Origin: Sedimentisphaerales bacterium
GTDB lineage: Bacteria; Planctomycetota; Phycisphaerae; Sedimentisphaerales; Anaerobacaceae
Length of the DNA stretch: 64,000 nucleotides
Assembly (NCBI GenBank): GCA_963708075.1
Contig: OY970194.1
Coordinates: forward strand, 1,056,001 to 1,120,000
Direction of reading: 5' to 3'
How positions within the stretch are numbered: position 1 is the first letter of the stretch; each line of letters starts with the position of its first letter. The position numbers and the translations under genes were made by a program. This document shows, piece after piece, positions 34,375 to 41,347 of the stretch. The notes beneath the pieces were generated by a model. That model saw nothing but the letters and a program-made list of their open reading frames with translations, did not search any database and was not told the DNA's origin.

Positions 34375-34382
34375 GCCTCTTC

Positions 34383-34484
34383 GTAGGTCGTGCGTCCCCG
34401 CACGACCGGTCTGGGCCCTTGCAGTGGATTGGATATGATGCAAAGCCACGGCCCTGGAGGGACGAGCGAGGACGCTCATCCCAC
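34383..34484. repeat. Convergent pair of GTAG/GTGG-type REP hairpins
   Basis: GTAGGTCGTGCGTCCCCGCACGACC (34383-34407) and inverted GTGGGATGAGCGTCCTCGCTCGTCCC (34459-34484); related copies at 41348-41418. Confidence 0.8.
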
Positions 34485-34625
34485 GTGGAGCCCCCCACAT
34501 CCGCCACCGAAAGCCGGCCGCACCCCGCATTCGTACGGAAGCCCTTTTTTCATGAGGCTCCCTTACTCCTTCCGTGATAAGGAGTTAAGAGAACAGAAAA
34601 TAGTGAGTCAATGTTTGAATTCCTG

Positions 34626-34654
34626 TTGACAGGAGGGAATGGTGAATATACCAT
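34626..34654 (+). promoter_or_regulatory. Sigma70-type promoter for the HNH-AP2 transcript
   Basis: TTGACA-17 nt-TACCAT. Confidence 0.6.
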
Positions 34655-34661
34655 AACTGGA

Positions 34662-34818
34662 AGAAAGCTCGAAATTCGAATATCGAAACCCGAAACAGAC
34701 TCAAAATCTGAAGGCTTCGAGGACCGAAACGCTGTCGCTGGGCCTGGTGCCGCTTCGAATTTCGGGATTTGGGACCTTCGTGCTTGTTTCGAATTTCGAC
34801 ATTCGGGTTTCGTATTTC
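34662..34818 (+). repeat. Long imperfect hairpin built of ~7-nt units (GAAAnnC / GnnTTTC)
   Basis: Left arm GAAATTC GAATATC GAAACCC GAAACA can pair, with G-U pairs, to TGTTTC GAATTTC GACATTC GGGTTTC. Confidence 0.8.
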
Positions 34819-34870
34819 CCGTCCTGCGGGTGTTTCGTGCTTCGGATCTTCTTTTGAAAAGGGGAGAACC

Positions 34871-35767
34871 ATGAAGAAGGTTGCGAGAGACAAGAAGAGC
34901 AGGACCACGGCCCCAGTTAGCCGGAAGCGGACCGGCCGTGTGCCGCCGCCGGAGAGCGAGTTGTGGCCCCTGTGGTGCCGTGGCAAGCTCTGGACGCGCG
35001 AGGCGGCCCGATGGTTTGCGGGTCGCTGCCAGTTGTGCGCGTACGCCTGTCGGCCGCCCGAGAGCCGCCGCCGGCTGGACAAGCTGGCTGCGTTGCCGAC
35101 CTTTCTGATCTGCACGAATCACCCGGCCAGTCCCGGCCGGATGCGCGAGGTTATGCCCACGGAGAAGTGCCGGAACTTCATGGCCCAGCGCTGGCGACTG
35201 CCGAGAGTCAAATCGCCCCAAAGGATGCCGCATCCGCAGGCCTGTGGACCCAAAGGCAAGGTCCGACACATCCCGTTAGGTCATGGCCTGTTCGCCACCG
35301 TCGATGCCGCGGACTACAAGTGGCTCAGCAAATACAAGTGGTCCGCCGTCAACATGTACGACCATATCTACGCAATCCGCCACGGCGACAGGCATCGGAC
35401 GGTGTACATGCATCGCGAAGTCGCGCACGCCACCAAGGGCTCCGTCGTGGACCACGCCGACCACAATACCTTGAACAACCGCCAGTGCAACGTCCGCCCC
35501 TGCACCCAGGCGCAGAACTCCGCCAACGCACGACCTCGCGGCGGGATCTCCGGATACGTGGGCGTCCACAAGAACGGGACAAAATGGGTTGCAGTGATCA
35601 CGTGCCGGGGCAAGAGCTACTATCTCGGGCGATTTGCCGATCCCGTCGAGGCCGCCAAGGCCCGCGACCGCATGGCCTACAAGCTCCACGGACCCTTCGC
35701 CTACCTCAACTTCCCGGAAGATTTCCCCGAACGCCGACACAAGCGGTCCTCGAAGAGGAAGGGTTGA
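34871..35767 (+). CDS. HNH endonuclease-AP2 domain protein with Cys-rich N-terminus
   Basis: GGGGAG RBS; CQLCAYAC...CTNH...CRNF; HNH VDHADHNTLNNRQCNVRPCTQAQN; AP2 SGYVGV...W...YLGRF..PVEAAKARD...AYLNFP. Confidence 0.9.
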   Translation: MKKVARDKKSRTTAPVSRKRTGRVPPPESELWPLWCRGKLWTREAARWFAGRCQLCAYACRPPESRRRLDKLAALPTFLICTNHPASPGRMREVMPTEKCRNFMAQRWRLPRVKSPQRMPHPQACGPKGKVRHIPLGHGLFATVDAADYKWLSKYKWSAVNMYDHIYAIRHGDRHRTVYMHREVAHATKGSVVDHADHNTLNNRQCNVRPCTQAQNSANARPRGGISGYVGVHKNGTKWVAVITCRGKSYYLGRFADPVEAAKARDRMAYKLHGPFAYLNFPEDFPERRHKRSSKRKG

Positions 35768-35987
35768 GGGTCGATGGGCATAAGCATTCGGCGTGGCCAG
35801 ATTGCGGGATTGGCCGATTGCCACAGGGCCAGACCTGTCGTATCGTATAATCGTGAGAGTAAGAGAGCTGTAGTTCGTCACGCCGCGAAAGCGGCGGTCG
35901 ATGAACGAAACGATCTTGCTTTCCAAGCACCAGGTGGTTCGCCACTTGGTGCTCTTTTTTTATGTACGCACTGTCCGCAGCCCAGAC

Positions 35988-36086
35988 GGCCGCAAGGCCC
36001 GCGAACTCAACAATCCCTATGCTTACCTCAGCTTCCCAGAGGATTGCCCCCACCACCGCAAGCGGTCCCAAAAACAGGAAAGGCCA
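35988..36086 (+). repeat. Degenerate copy of the AP2 3' end
   Basis: Translates GRKARELNNPYAYLSFPEDCP versus gene DRMAYKLHGPFAYLNFPEDFP. Confidence 0.8.
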
Positions 36087-36288
36087 GGCGCAAGTGTCCT
36101 TGGTTCTCCATTCGGGGGCGGCGCTAGGTTGCGGTACAACCTAGCGCGTGTTGAGGACGGCGCTAGGTGGTAATACCACATAGTGGATGTGACAGCAGGG
36201 ATAAGCGCAGCCGCCACGTCTTTCTCGGGTACCTGTCCGCGCCGTAGCTGATTCCCCACACGCCCCAGCGCAGGCGCCATCCACCCCG

Positions 36289-36400
36289 GCCAAGGCCAGC
36301 GACCGCAAGGCCCTACGCCCTCCACAGCCCCTACGCCTACCTCAACTTCCCAGAGGATTTCCCCCAGCGACGCAAGGCAGCCTCGAAATAGAGAGGGCCA
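36289..36400 (+). repeat. Second degenerate copy of the AP2 3' end
   Basis: AKASDRKA/(+1)YALHSPYAYLNFPEDFPQRRK; GCCTACCTCAACTTCCC identical to the gene. Confidence 0.85.
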
Positions 36401-36464
36401 GAGTCAGGTTAGGCCCCGTCCTGTCTGGGCCCGCGAGAATAATGAGTAATGTAGATACGGCCCC

Positions 36465-37769
36465 TCATGTCCCACTGCGGGCGGGTTTCTTAAACGAAAG
36501 GACTACCTCGCTCCGCATTCGCGTGTTCAGTGTGGCCGTGTCGCCTGATGCGGATGGTGGGGGAAGGTATCGACGATTGGCAGGGAGCGTGCGCACGCTT
36601 CGGCTCTCCAGAGTGAGCCCGAATCGCTCCGCAACAGCAGACACAATCACTGAGTTGGGAATATATGTCCCGCGGACAGTGTTCTCTCCGACTACGTATA
36701 CAGCCCTGCCGGCCGGCCTGAGTACGCGCGCAGCCTCATGCACTGTACGGCACATGTCTCTAATGTATCGCACAAGTATGCCTTTGTCTCGCGGACCTAA
36801 CTCCCGTACGACTTTCAGTTTCTCAACCAGACGGCTGACTTCTGGGCCCTGCTGGCTGGCAGTCTCGCCAACCTCAGATCCAATGCTTCTGCTACGTAGA
36901 CGGCGAAGGTCACTAATCCCATGCCCCATCCAGACAAGCGAGAACTTACTGCAGCGCATGTAGTCGATTGCGTTCAGGTAAGGCGGCGATGTTACAACCA
37001 GATCGATTGAAGCGTCATCCAGCGGGAGAGTGCGCGCATCACCCTCATAGACCTGAGTCGAAGGACCGCGTTTTCTGCTATTCCCATCAATGCAGTTTTC
37101 GACCACGCGATTTACAGATGCGAGAAACTTACGGAAGGGCTTAGACGGCGCATGGTCGAAGCATTTGTGCGGGCGGCTATGCGACAGATCCATTGCCAAT
37201 GAAGCACCAGCCTGCTTGCTGATGATTAGGCGAGAGAAAGCGCACCAGAGAACATCGCGGACTTTGTGATCGCGTATACGGTTGATTGCGACTGCTAACG
37301 AGGAAAGCTGCCGTCTGGCATAGCCATCGAACCAGTATGCGACGAAATGCCGGGTTTCATCATCCGCATGTATGGGATAAGCATCTCGCGTGGCCAGGGT
37401 CACAAAGATCCGTTTGGCGCGATGCAAGACCTCCAGTGCCCTTTCGCGGACCCTTGATGCGTCGACGGGTGTCGTCCAAACCTTGGAGATAAGGACAGCA
37501 AGGGGATCGATATCTATCCCAATAGCCCAATGTCCTTTGGAGCGAGCTACTGCAAGTACGGTCCCCGAACCCATCATTGGATCGAGCACCCTGAGCGGCT
37601 TCTCAGCGTCTGCAATTGCGTCGAGAGCGATCCCCGGCGCCATGCGTGCGGGGAAAGGATGGACGGATTCACGTCCAAGTATCTCGTAGATTGTCTTCTT
37701 GTGTGATTGCACCATTGGTTCAGCCTCGAGCATCCTGGACAACGTCCGCCGGAGGATGCGTCGGCTCAA
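36465..37769 (-). CDS. Site-specific DNA amino-methyltransferase (probably N4-cytosine)
   Basis: HPFPARM, motif I VLDPMMGSGT, motif IV VTSPPY; 4-bp overlap with the upstream gene (start could be ~37714). Confidence 0.9.
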   Translation of the reverse strand: MSRRILRRTLSRMLEAEPMVQSHKKTIYEILGRESVHPFPARMAPGIALDAIADAEKPLRVLDPMMGSGTVLAVARSKGHWAIGIDIDPLAVLISKVWTTPVDASRVRERALEVLHRAKRIFVTLATRDAYPIHADDETRHFVAYWFDGYARRQLSSLAVAINRIRDHKVRDVLWCAFSRLIISKQAGASLAMDLSHSRPHKCFDHAPSKPFRKFLASVNRVVENCIDGNSRKRGPSTQVYEGDARTLPLDDASIDLVVTSPPYLNAIDYMRCSKFSLVWMGHGISDLRRLRSRSIGSEVGETASQQGPEVSRLVEKLKVVRELGPRDKGILVRYIRDMCRTVHEAARVLRPAGRAVYVVGENTVRGTYIPNSVIVSAVAERFGLTLESRSVRTLPANRRYLPPPSASGDTATLNTRMRSEVVLSFKKPARSGT

Positions 37770-40318
37770 GATACATCGTCCGAATACTCTCTCGTAGCGG
37801 CCTCAATTGCGTCGATGACATTGGTAGCACTCTGATCTAGTTCCACACTTTCAGAACTCGCGAATATCGCGCCAGGAGCCATTTGTGCCATGGCCTTGCA
37901 CAAATCAATGAGCGTGTCGTCCGTCTCATACTTGATTGGTGGCGTCCGATGCGAAAGCTCGACCCTCAGAGCTGCATACTTGACACCGCTGCTCTTGTAT
38001 TCTTTCTGGAGGTACTCAATGGTCTCCACAATCGCTTTATAGGGCGTCTTCTTAACCTTTGTCTCCTTGATGGCCTGGACCCATGCCGCACTCTCGTTGG
38101 GCAACTGACAGTTGAGCAGGAGGTCCCTTATCTTCACTAGGCCAATCTGCTTGATTGGACGAAGCTTGACAAGCTCGGCAAGGTCGTCGATCGTGATCAA
38201 TGTGATAGTTTTGGGCCCACCTATTTTCTCCGTTTTCATGCGATCATCGGCGATTTCCTTCGCCAGCGCCGATGCTCCACCTTTGGAAGTGGGAAAATCA
38301 CGTCCCACCACGAGTGCGTGTTGGCACCTATAAGCATCCCGCTGGCGGACGATTGCTGAAACGCCCACTGTGTGAGCGGCCACTTTTCCCTTGTCAGCCT
38401 TCTTGCTCTTGGCTTCGAGGCTTACCGCATATTGGCGTGCTCTGCCCTTGTCATCTGCTGAAAGGTATGCTGTCGCGACACCATCTGGCTTACCGGGGCC
38501 CCCGATTGGCGTCACCTCGAACCCAAGACTTCTAAACGCGCTACATAGTCTGTCCTCCAGCGCATCGGCATCATTCCTCGCGTTCCGAAGCTCGAGCGAG
38601 ATGGCAAAGGCACTTTTACGTCCTGACTCATTGGCAAGATTGCGGAGCAGTTGATCCCGCAGAGTAAGGAAATCATCGATCAGGTCGCCCTTGACCCCGA
38701 TGGAGTGGAGGTGGGCCTCGGTGAGGACCTCAGCCATGGCAAGCAGTTCGAGCGGCTGACCTGCAGCCTTGCTTGCGAATTCATCGTGAAAAGTGGCGAC
38801 AAATGGGTGCCACGCATTGATTCGGAGGTAACCTGTCACCGTATCATACCGCGCAATGCCGTCGACGGGCGAGCCTTCGTAGTCAATCGTCAGACCGCTT
38901 ACGAACTTGTCTGCCTCAGCCGCGCGCCCCTCAAGGAGGCCCAAAAACGCATCACGTTCGACGGCTGATTCAAGATCCGGCACAATGAGGTAGCGGGACT
39001 TGCGCTGTCCCTTAAGTACGGCCCGAGCGAGATTGACAATTGGACTTCGCGAGAGGCTCGCGGGACTCGCAGACAACTTGCGAGCCAGCCTTGCGCCTGG
39101 CTCCTCCTCCTGATCGTACTTCTCGATTGTGGGGCGCACGGCGTTGAAGATGGCTCGGAGCACGTTCTGTGCAGTAGTGAGGAGTGGGCCTTCACTTATT
39201 GCCTCACGGTTCGACCGCAGTCCCTCATCGAGTCCGTCCATATAGACCACGAGTCGGAATCGTCCAAATGTGCCATGGCGGAGTTCATCGGGTGATATTC
39301 CAAAGTGGCCATCAACCACGTTCAGAAGTCGCCCGAACACGTAAACGAAGAAACCATAGCTGCGCCCCAGTTCGTCCGACTTTCCGGTCAACAGGTCCTT
39401 ATATGCCTCGGCATAGCCCGTGATACGTCCAAGGCCAGGAATATCGAGGCCGAATCGATGGTCGCTGGCCTTGTCAGCGTTCAAGTCCTCCGATGCCGAT
39501 ACTCCCTTGGGGCTTGGCTTGGGCGGCTGAATCAAGTCCCTGCCGAGAACCCATCGCTTTAACAATCCCTTGTCGTGCTTGCTCGGGACCAGTTTCTTTC
39601 CGTTTAGCCAGACGGCAAAATCCGGTCGCAAGGGCAATGCAGTCCGGAGTACCCATTCGAGCACGCCTGGCTTGATCTCGTGCACCTTAGGTTTGAGCGA
39701 CGACATTACCGCAATCGTCCACGAATCTGGCGATTTTTTGCCGAAGAGAACCATGTCCGCAGCCTTGAAAGCGCCAGAGCCTGTCCACGCCTTGGTCACA
39801 CGTTTCGCCTCCTCTTCGCTCAGTTGCCTCAGGGCGATCTTAATAGGAGTTGTAGGGCCTACTTCCTTTCCAACTTGCCCTTCAATTGCCGTATAGTCCA
39901 TCGACGTGGAGTAGTACTTTCCATCTCGCTTGCTGATATGAGTGAGCCGCTCAGACAGGACGTAGGTGGCCAATTTGCCGATGCCGAACTTGCCAATCTG
40001 TTGTCGGCCGCGCGGGAGTGAATCCAATTGGCGTTTATTGCTGATGCCGATCAGCCAGTGTTGCTTGAGCCCAACGACGTCCATTCCTTCGCCATCGTCG
40101 ATTACGGTGATCGTCGCATCTTGTGCGTGCATGTTTGGGGACAGAAGTAGCACCACTCGCTGCGCACCTGCATCGAAAGAGTTGGCTACCAATTCCTCAA
40201 TAGCCTTGTTTGGGCTGGCGTAAAGCCCCTCCGAGAACAAGTCGATGATCCTGTAACTCAGGAGCACATCAATGGTATCAATCGACTTGCCGATGGATAC
40301 AAAACCGGGTTCTTTCAC
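37766..40318 (-). CDS. GHKL (MORC/HATPase-like) ATPase fused to a C-terminal PD-(D/E)xK restriction-type nuclease
   Basis: EELVANSFDAGA, DDGEGM, GKFGIGK; C-terminal AFRSLGFEV...GKPDG...LEAKS. Confidence 0.85.
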   Translation of the reverse strand: MKEPGFVSIGKSIDTIDVLLSYRIIDLFSEGLYASPNKAIEELVANSFDAGAQRVVLLLSPNMHAQDATITVIDDGEGMDVVGLKQHWLIGISNKRQLDSLPRGRQQIGKFGIGKLATYVLSERLTHISKRDGKYYSTSMDYTAIEGQVGKEVGPTTPIKIALRQLSEEEAKRVTKAWTGSGAFKAADMVLFGKKSPDSWTIAVMSSLKPKVHEIKPGVLEWVLRTALPLRPDFAVWLNGKKLVPSKHDKGLLKRWVLGRDLIQPPKPSPKGVSASEDLNADKASDHRFGLDIPGLGRITGYAEAYKDLLTGKSDELGRSYGFFVYVFGRLLNVVDGHFGISPDELRHGTFGRFRLVVYMDGLDEGLRSNREAISEGPLLTTAQNVLRAIFNAVRPTIEKYDQEEEPGARLARKLSASPASLSRSPIVNLARAVLKGQRKSRYLIVPDLESAVERDAFLGLLEGRAAEADKFVSGLTIDYEGSPVDGIARYDTVTGYLRINAWHPFVATFHDEFASKAAGQPLELLAMAEVLTEAHLHSIGVKGDLIDDFLTLRDQLLRNLANESGRKSAFAISLELRNARNDADALEDRLCSAFRSLGFEVTPIGGPGKPDGVATAYLSADDKGRARQYAVSLEAKSKKADKGKVAAHTVGVSAIVRQRDAYRCQHALVVGRDFPTSKGGASALAKEIADDRMKTEKIGGPKTITLITIDDLAELVKLRPIKQIGLVKIRDLLLNCQLPNESAAWVQAIKETKVKKTPYKAIVETIEYLQKEYKSSGVKYAALRVELSHRTPPIKYETDDTLIDLCKAMAQMAPGAIFASSESVELDQSATNVIDAIEAATREYSDDVS

Positions 40319-40613
40319 AACAGTACCTCGTCTTGGACGATTTACTCCTCACTGATTCAAAGCTCTTACCAACCCGCATACGTCTGATAATTCTGTTCAA
40401 CGTACCGGTCCCTGCGACGTCGGTCCACAGCATATACTGCTCCCCTCAGGAGGTCAACTGACTTATTCGTGCGGAGTCCGATGGTAGTATGGGGGGCAGG
40501 TCCATCGTCTGCGTCAGGACCACGCGGAGAGAAACGATGGGAATGACGCACGCGGCCGGCGTGCCGAATGGGTGATCTCACGTCAGCGGTGAAAACGGAA
40601 AGGGGCCCTCTGC

Positions 40614-40979
40614 CTATCGGCTTTGATATACCACATGGAGACGGGTGGCGGCGGAGTGGAGGGGGCGGTCGAGGGTCCAGAGGGGCAGGTTGGCGAGTTG
40701 GGCGGAGGCGAGCAGGTGGATGTCGATATAGCCCAACCCCAGGCCCATCAGATGGTTCGACTCGATGAAATGCAGGACCTCTTCGTGGGCAGCGACCGGA
40801 CAGGTGCACAGGGTTTGAAGCAGGTCGAGGATTTCGTGGCGGTTCTTCAGGTTCCCGCAGGCCAATTCGCCCAACACAAAGGGATGACAAACAACGGCGG
40901 CCGCTTCGAGTTGGGCGGCCAACTCGGGCAGACCCCGGCGGAAGTGCTCCACCCAGACGGAGGTATCGACCAGGACCAT
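40614..40979 (-). CDS. vapC: VapC-like PIN domain toxin
   Basis: VLVDTSVW, GELACG, IDIHLLASA, LWTLD. Confidence 0.9.
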   Translation of the reverse strand: MVLVDTSVWVEHFRRGLPELAAQLEAAAVVCHPFVLGELACGNLKNRHEILDLLQTLCTCPVAAHEEVLHFIESNHLMGLGLGYIDIHLLASAQLANLPLWTLDRPLHSAATRLHVVYQSR

Positions 40980-40983
40980 TCTC

Positions 40984-41178
40984 TTACTTCCATGCCCGGC
41001 GCCGGCGGGGCCGCTTCAGTTGCTTCTCCGTGCCGCCGAGTTTTGCCAAGCGTTCTGCGCTTTTCTGCGCGATCAAGGCCTCCAGGCCCATGCGCACGAG
41101 CGAGGTCCGCTCCTCGACGCCCGTCAGCTTGGACGCCTTGGCAACGAGCTTATCATCTACGTTCAATGTCGTTCTCAT
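40984..41178 (-). CDS. vapB: VapB-like ribbon-helix-helix antitoxin
   Basis: MRTTLNVDDKLV...LVRMGLEALI...LAKLGG directly upstream of the PIN gene. Confidence 0.88.
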   Translation of the reverse strand: MRTTLNVDDKLVAKASKLTGVEERTSLVRMGLEALIAQKSAERLAKLGGTEKQLKRPRRRRAWK

Positions 41179-41347
41179 ACACGTGCTCCTGATGCATGGT
41201 CTATACATATATGTATGCATATCCTGATGCATATGTCAAGTGGAAATCGAGCGACGGAAAGATAAGAATGCGGCTGCGTTTCTTGGCACGGGGTGGCTCG
41301 CTGGACGGGAGAGATCACATCATAGGGCATAGCCCGCTCAATGAGAA

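Follow-up and report, generated by a model that had tools for sequence, protein, structure and literature searches.

The 298-aa open reading frame (ORF) at positions 34871..35767 (+ strand) of the window, by which we mean the whole stretch of 64,000 nucleotides analysed here, belongs to a Cys4-HNH-AP2 gene family that has 37 dispersed copies in its source genome (G000). We tentatively read these copies as predicted homing-type nickases that may have spread by nick-initiated ectopic gene conversion, and such a homing-like spread to non-allelic sites is favoured by the copy number, the genome-specific clades, the structure of the junctions, the residence among repeats and the swapping of cargo at orthologous slots. 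Most known free-standing homing endonucleases come from phages and organelles, and they usually have one homologous site each. With dozens of diverged and mostly intact copies at chromosomal sites that are unrelated to one another, the family poses the question of how a homing gene can reach new loci without a transposase.

A predicted Cys4-HNH-AP2 endonuclease

The ORF is uninterrupted and preceded by a ribosome-binding site (RBS) read from the sequence at 34860..34866 (+ strand), a purine-rich Shine-Dalgarno sequence common to the paralogues, so that both features appear as the first-pass annotation of this DNA had described them. The encoded protein begins with a basic leader, followed by a Cys4 domain (~35027-35170), an I-HmuI-like HNH domain, an AP2 domain (~35552-35725) and a variable basic tail. 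Pfam placed HNH_3 at residues 189-217 and AP2 at residues 228-274, both below the curated cut-offs, while PHROGs returned the HNH endonuclease family phrog_99 (E 9e-33). An AlphaFold model of the protein (pLDDT 88.5) matched I-HmuI (PDB 1u3e) with Z 6.5 and rmsd 4.1 over 78 residues (profile E 7.5e-6) and AP2 with Z 10.0 and rmsd 1.5 over 57 residues. Among 99 homologues, the catalytic residues are kept to a high degree (D194 in 89, H195 in all 99, N207 in 97, N216 in 93 and N219 in 89), and the model and this alignment support the earlier description of an apparently intact HNH site and an AP2 domain.

The cysteine-rich N-terminus was likewise correctly recognised: C53, C56, C81 and C100 are kept in 95-97 of the 99 homologues and form a predicted Cys4 domain with putative metal binding. 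This domain had no match in Pfam or the Atlas and no significant match in PHROGs; its single-sequence model (pLDDT 52) was too poor for a fold search, and comparison using the full-length model gave one weak row (2y8n_B, Z 3.4). Atlas clusters of the whole protein are mostly from Planctomycetota. Among the ORFs listed for 28-52 kb of the window, some of which were scanned against the libraries, there are no phage structural genes, which agrees with the earlier statement that neither phage genes nor an intron are found nearby.

A predicted stem at 34836-34909 encloses the RBS and the start codon and might serve as a translational brake, with a z-score of only -1.4 for the whole region. Apparent fusions implied by open frames of 806-1795 aa were rejected as run-on into neighbouring antisense frames or linkers, and so was a derivation of the RBS and start from a GTAG REP arm, as some starts are similar to it and most are ordinary Shine-Dalgarno sequences.

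Copies, distribution and evolution of the family

Searching with the protein by tblastn detected the 37 loci in the 7.5-Mb single-contig genome (41 matches in another count), of which the window covers C1:1056001-1120000. The paralogues are diverged, with a maximum of 72% and a median of 41% amino acid identity, and because no near-identical copies exist we conclude that the spread is old or slow. The four cysteines of the Cys4 domain together with H195 and N207 are retained in 32 of 36 aligned copies, one of which is short in AP2. Broken paralogues comprise one that is frameshifted, possibly by an assembly error (C1:7515281-7514393), one interrupted by a repeat (C1:5338538-5337590) and one truncated in AP2 (C1:5410790), and solo remnants of the 3' end lie at C1:2897610 and 6460205. 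All 22 pairs that were compared have dN/dS values of 0.08-0.58, with 0.08 for the fixed-site orthologues L066/L074.

Matches to this query are present in 15 of 18 congeneric genomes (1-32 each) and absent from the other three. Of 12 genomes that represent other families within the order, 3 contain 2-16 matches. Across the class, 7 of 150 genomes have a match, none of which spans the full Cys4 domain, and close homologues were found in 22 of 275 genomes of the taxonomic family, distributed over three genera. A scan of genome contigs with a single protein as query gave no match. In a tree of 99 proteins, 19 of the G000 copies fall within one 23-member clade (SH-aLRT 99), 11 of the G000 copies form an exclusive subclade (SH-aLRT 89) and a clade of 8 is exclusive to another genome, G001 (98), though this tree was made by a quick method without bootstrap and the relatives' loci were the top-listed matches (60 + 5), which biases the clade counts. 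The farther apart two G000 copies lie on the chromosome, the lower their protein identity tends to be (rho -0.36, p 0.0002, n = 36), which suggests local copying along the chromosome. The copies show no leading-strand bias (20/37), and 28/37 lie in the origin half as placed by GC skew only (p 0.001 against 0.5), an excess that is weakened by the location of 60% of repeat bases in that same half.

Occupied sites are not shared with relatives. An HNH-AP2 gene beside rfbB, as seen in the window, is absent from the loci of 11 relatives, one of which ends at a contig edge. Conversely, 11 of 65 loci from relatives had both flanks mappable to G000, where the flanks of 10 mapped apart and one locus was syntenic without a copy. 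The 37 loci together with the absence of the gene beside rfbB in relatives support the proposal of a free-standing selfish or mobile unit.

A palindrome and a promoter at the left end

Near the left end of the unit we found a palindrome, TTA-N4-TT-N7-AA-N4-TTA, at 34563..34587 (no strand assigned), a putative IHF/HU-type site whose centre lies ~86 nt upstream of the predicted transcription start. The promoter, previously called consensus-like, is indeed a sigma-70-type sequence with 10/12 matching positions (TTGACA-17-TACCAT, 34626..34654, + strand); it is conserved in the subfamily and lies 37 nt after the 27-nt motif window, and the search detected 2 promoter sites where shuffled sequence would give 0.5. 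The spacing between palindrome and promoter is 36-37 nt in 16 of the 30 units that have such a promoter. Palindrome scores exceed 12 at 22/37 loci of G000 (the training set), at 39/61 independent loci of relatives and at 5/17 further loci that are mostly from sister genera, compared with 9/600 control genes and 0/73 phage loci; in a sister genus, the motif is weak.

The profile of 66 sites, TT-N7-AA-N4-TTA, has AA steps nine bp apart followed by an N4-TTR arm, as in an IHF site (for whose geometry see the accessible part of PMC1874591). Only the CAA of the IHF core WATCAA is kept (C in 49, A in 55 and A in 46 of 66 sites), while WAT, the other half of the E. coli core, is not conserved in this profile. 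Three PF00216 (IHF/HU) genes are present in the genome, and from its sequence the palindrome is likely bound by an IHF/HU-type protein supporting the unit's own promoter.

The palindrome is not confined to the family. Three genomes with no match to the query (G005, G006 and G013) contain 53-75 sites compared to 0-1 in controls, and 20 sites of G005 have no HNH-AP2 gene nearby. It also precedes 8/9 genes of an unrelated dispersed family and 14/31 repeat-spacer arrays, as well as what we take to be two copies of a transposase-like gene and tRNA-like fragments. Because it abounds in genomes without the family and stands before other dispersed families, we regard the palindrome as a predicted host-factor site and not as a signature of the nuclease. 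A role as the nuclease's own operator or target was rejected as its sole role given the 53-75 sites in query-negative genomes. Several subclades carry a ~16-nt motif as a direct repeat on both sides of the palindrome, ~100 nt apart (L047, L061, L064, L070, L077 and L034-L042; C1:4226774 and 2151666 in G000), of which the upstream copy marks a sharp left end of the unit in an architecture reminiscent of looping or recombination.

Extent of the moving unit and its repeat-rich surroundings

Where junctions are readable, the segment that appears to move extends from just upstream of the palindrome, through the unit's own promoter, to about the end of AP2. The homology of close paralogues begins at or just before the palindrome. 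L069 and L080 are 91.5% identical over 934 nt and have different upstream neighbours; the shared stretch starts ~40 nt before the palindrome, inside a repeat cluster, and stops at the C-terminal motif of AP2, beyond which the two tails show no relationship. The same end point is seen for L061 and L070, which have the unit in common and differ in their upstream neighbours, and unit identity across both pairs is 83-100%, with the sharpness of the right junction partly reflecting fast decay of the tail. At one orthologous slot (L064, L070), identity is 87-97% in the upstream flank, 80-93% in the promoter module and only 57-93% in the ORF, a pattern that fits replacement by a paralogue.

The occupant of an orthologous slot varies between species: it may be the unit, two paired REPs, some unrelated gene or what by eye looks like a 5' fragment or a RAYT-like gene. 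The comparison of filled and empty sites proposed in the first-pass annotation thus revealed patchy occupancy and no clean empty allele, as unfilled slots contain other cargo, and the sequencing-run contigs examined had no empty allele either. At the junctions of L076/L095, L069/L080/L257 and L064/L070, all of them species-level pairs, we saw no terminal repeats or target-site duplications, and no core-site duplication appeared at the junctions read.

Upstream flanks of the family are rich in repeats (26/37 vs 158/714, p 9e-10). In the window, a GTAG-type REP doublet follows rfbB at 34375..34526 (no strand assigned; at least 12 other genomic copies of 79-85% identity), and a REP-like doublet at 36120..36190 (likewise unstranded) has copies of 73-89% identity elsewhere in the genome. 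The gene's own 3' end, i.e., the AP2 end, recurs as two decayed copies at 35987..36080 (+ strand), an arrangement also seen at the homologous locus L115, and at 36289..36407 (+ strand). Besides these two, stray 3'-end copies occur at L115, in G014 and elsewhere in G000. The two decayed copies, the palindrome and the RNA unit downstream had escaped the first-pass annotation.

The hairpin in the 5' leader

Between promoter and ORF lies a hairpin of heptad inverted repeats (34665..34818, no strand assigned) that behaves as a dispersed, MITE-like repeat and passenger of the 5' leader. The long heptad-built hairpin itself, 34665-34818, had been described correctly, with arms at 34670-34697 and 34785-34812 that are 82% complementary. 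In isolation, it has a predicted folding energy of -53 kcal/mol (z -3.1), and its minus strand also forms a fold (z -5.3). With flanking sequence included, the z-score is just -1.5, and a comparison of the region with Rfam returned nothing credible. A hidden Markov model of the hairpin detected 29 loci in G000, nine of them longer than 135 nt, and 25 of the 29 are far from any HNH-AP2 paralogue. Several occupy short gaps separating co-oriented housekeeping genes that we take, judging by their translations, to be nadC/birA and ilvB/ilvN.

At C1:4716947-4717420, two halves of the hairpin model (positions 74-153 and 2-77) stand on either side of a TIGR02436 four-helix-bundle gene (C1:4716987-4717352). 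Inverted heptad arms flank five of six TIGR02436 genes (C1:5596407, 6174194, 4880609, 4717026, 1129633 and 6460740), and only an upstream arm was seen at the sixth. Based on these two observations, the hairpin is best read as an ORF-less miniature of a TIGR02436 four-helix-bundle element. Each of the six genes has a heptad repeat type of its own, and these types also exist without an ORF. In the literature searched, we found no link in print between heptad repeats and TIGR02436 four-helix-bundle genes, and the accessible text of PMC4679880 does not mention helix-bundle genes. With heptad hairpins explained as relatives of such elements, similar flags of a "hairpin plus gene" can be discounted in these genomes.

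The first-pass annotation had seen the hairpin as an RNA partner, regulator or DNA recognition structure and had suggested checking its co-occurrence with the paralogues. It is present in the leader of 2/37 paralogues in G000 and upstream of 3/78 copies in relatives (1/61 + 2/17), which is largely the picture of a generic dispersed repeat, and none of the three closest homologues, which are 85, 72 and 68% identical, carries it. Two of these have a GTAG-type REP in its slot and the other leader is short and unrelated; the leader is a hypervariable slot collecting repeats. A cis-encoded RNA partner or recognition structure in the manner of HEARO/OMEGA systems is thus largely refuted and, in our view, extremely improbable. 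What speaks for it are the few leaders mentioned and a metagenomic contig that joins the hairpin end to the start of an HNH-AP2 homologue (n = 1), all among the closer homologues, together with a roughly ten-fold enrichment of the hairpin within 700 nt of family loci (4/37 vs 12/1161 control genes); other repeats are enriched at these loci as well, one REP type far more strongly (7/37, or 9/37 with mismatches, vs 1/800). These points are opposed by the hairpin-free closest homologues, the 25 distant loci, the match to TIGR02436 arms, equal folding on both strands and the lack of a match in Rfam.

A candidate RNA downstream of the gene

A better RNA candidate than the hairpin lies downstream of the gene, where a second promoter-like site (35818..35846, + strand; 9/12), in a region kept in both L115 copies, precedes a candidate non-coding RNA of 110 nt (35853..35962, + strand) with a stem, an internal loop, a variable inner hairpin and an intrinsic terminator at 35926-35960. 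L115, an 85%-identical homologue at an unrelated locus, has two copies of it, one on each side of the gene, that show pair-preserving changes, and the fold z-scores of the three copies range from -6.7 to -8.4 with the terminator included. Searches of Rfam with the window region and L115 gave nothing credible; the RNA is single-copy in G000 and missing from 23 congeners, its covariance model had no match near ~40 other homologues, and blastn of 300 genomes of the order produced three short matches of 24-39 nt only. Exact-pattern scans found nothing, and no sequencing run was listed as carrying the RNA. Hammerhead ribozymes have a CUGANGA core, and this assignment was rejected as the core is missing.

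A sub-lineage of the nuclease might work with this RNA as antitoxin, inhibitor or guide-like partner, for which one can cite its own promoter and terminator, the strong fold of three copies whose differences preserve the pairing, and the position of all three known copies beside a close family member, at two unrelated loci. We nevertheless consider this very improbable, since the RNA is limited to two closely related loci, was not found near the ~40 other homologues searched and might be cargo that became trapped between the duplicated 3' ends.

Comparison with known systems

By its architecture, the family belongs to the HNH-AP2 homing endonuclease genes, and homing is predicted for it by analogy. 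Such genes have been described in phages, cyanobacteria and protists in the accessible part of PMC10448857, which also discusses turnover of homing endonuclease genes at favoured loci. The phage representatives (IPA-HNH of PMC10448857; phrog_99) are similarly free-standing with an N-terminal HNH and a C-terminal AP2 domain, and their HNH-AP2 core is 33-46% identical to that of the G000 family. Unlike these phage genes, the G000 family is chromosomal, has up to ~40 dispersed copies, carries the Cys4 domain, starts with a palindrome-promoter left end and resides among REP and heptad repeats. None of the 80 best phage loci had the Cys4 domain, the hairpin or the palindrome. The nicking HNH homing endonuclease I-HmuI has the fold of its HNH domain in common with the G000 protein. 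Whereas I-HmuI is intron-encoded and ends in a helix-turn-helix, the protein studied here has an AP2 C-terminus and no intron.

With regard to REP/RAYT and MITE-type repeats, GTAG-tagged REPs have been reported for Planctomycetes (accessible part of PMC3733652) and surround the units here, and the hairpin resembles an ORF-less miniature but differs from REP/RAYT elements in being built of heptads and tied to TIGR02436 genes rather than RAYT. OMEGA/HEARO (IscB) systems likewise combine an HNH gene with a structured sequence upstream. Unlike in these systems, there is no conserved cis RNA (the hairpin is absent from 75/78 loci of relatives), no Rfam match and no RuvC-like domain, as Cys4, HNH and AP2 account for the 298-aa chain. 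No transposase family was matched in Pfam (query), NCBIfam or PHROGs (64 members), and by the features tested the family is neither an OMEGA/HEARO system nor an insertion sequence. In the literature searched, which covered few subscription journals and no supplements, we found no description of a chromosomal, Cys4-extended HNH-AP2 expansion of ~40 copies.

How the family may spread

In the ectopic gene conversion that we tentatively propose, the protein would nick DNA in or close to competing paralogues or intergenic slots rich in repeats, and repair would copy promoter and ORF from a nearby donor. Homology on the left could be provided by dispersed repeats or an old promoter module and on the right by an old AP2-end remnant or microhomology, while an IHF/HU-type protein bound to the palindrome would support the promoter of the new copy. 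Simple homing theory predicts no purifying selection once a site is filled, and the low dN/dS of the fixed-site orthologues L066/L074 (0.08) is at odds with this model, as are the lack of recent identical copies and of a clean filled/empty pair and a palindrome that is neither family-specific nor strong in a sister genus. A more elaborate picture, that of a transposase-free selfish chromosomal element, is possible, but we would not yet call it probable. Here, an HNH-AP2 homing nuclease of phage origin would have acquired a Cys4 domain and a portable IHF-type promoter. With dispersed REP and heptad repeats and older paralogues as landing pads, it would have passed from homing at a single site to local spread throughout the genome, up to ~40 competing copies of potentially different DNA specificities.

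Purifying selection on orthologues would rather be expected of a domesticated family whose members act as host regulators, process repeats or cut invading DNA and that grew by ordinary duplication in recombination-prone repeat clusters. The intact cysteines and H195/N207 of 32/36 aligned copies, the strong divergence of the paralogues and the different promoter types that subclades have behind the same palindrome are compatible with this, and plant AP2 factors derive from such endonucleases according to the accessible part of PMC10448857. Such domestication is nonetheless unlikely in our judgement, because these queries find the family neither in three of the congeners nor in most of the order and class, because the slots change their contents and remnants are frequent, and because the retained catalytic residues argue against pure regulators. 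Somewhat less likely still is a unit that travels as passive cargo, moved by RAYT/Y1 proteins acting on REPs, by an IS transposase or by a tyrosine recombinase that uses the IHF-like end, with the nuclease merely protecting the unit or being neutral. The genome does have 13 Y1-family matches and 4 tyrosine recombinases, the palindrome also precedes the unrelated family and the arrays, and one orthologous slot holds a RAYT-like gene; yet the REP type most enriched at family loci is near no Y1 gene (0/41), the junctions read share no terminal repeat, core-site or target duplication, and selection on the HNH residues would be left unexplained. The family would moreover provide a natural collection of nickases targeted by AP2 domains and a living example of how an HNH-AP2 endonuclease may turn into an AP2 regulator.

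Neighbouring genes and other dispersed elements

Downstream of the unit, a defence-like island (36465-41232 of the window) encodes a DNA methylase and a GHKL-ATPase of 850 aa whose N-terminus resembles the restriction enzymes BbrUII/HgiDII, and it includes a VapC-like gene next to a small ORF. At the corresponding position, L115 has a different large gene that by eye looks SIR2-like with TPR-like repeats.

G000 further contains 31 arrays built from a ~16-20-nt repeat (CAAAGCCAAT core) whose copies lie at varying distances of ~33-212 nt from start to start (e.g., C1:482698-483113 and C1:415134-415906; also loci L217-L229 of G005). The IHF-like palindrome lies within 1.5 kb upstream of the 14 arrays mentioned above, for many at a distance of only 200-330 nt, and repeat arrays of this kind in G005 are preceded by the promoter module with which other species drive HNH-AP2 genes. 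Array spacers as guides were rejected: 0/189 match an ORF of the family, and matches to flanks are most likely shared repeats.

The second dispersed family is defined by an N-terminal ANRRNAxKSTGPxT motif, reaches up to ~480 aa and often ends in repeat arrays. The palindrome is found upstream in eight of its nine copies (C1:940952, 1540891, 2509744, 2846839, 3263565, 4778181, 6280368, 1879764 and 2340987), and no relevant paper on this family was found in the literature searched. Five other palindromes (C1:2097787, 3099738, 4138695, 4177392 and 6493165) adjoin fragments that we take to be similar to the 3' half of tRNA-Phe, suggesting old attachment-site scars.
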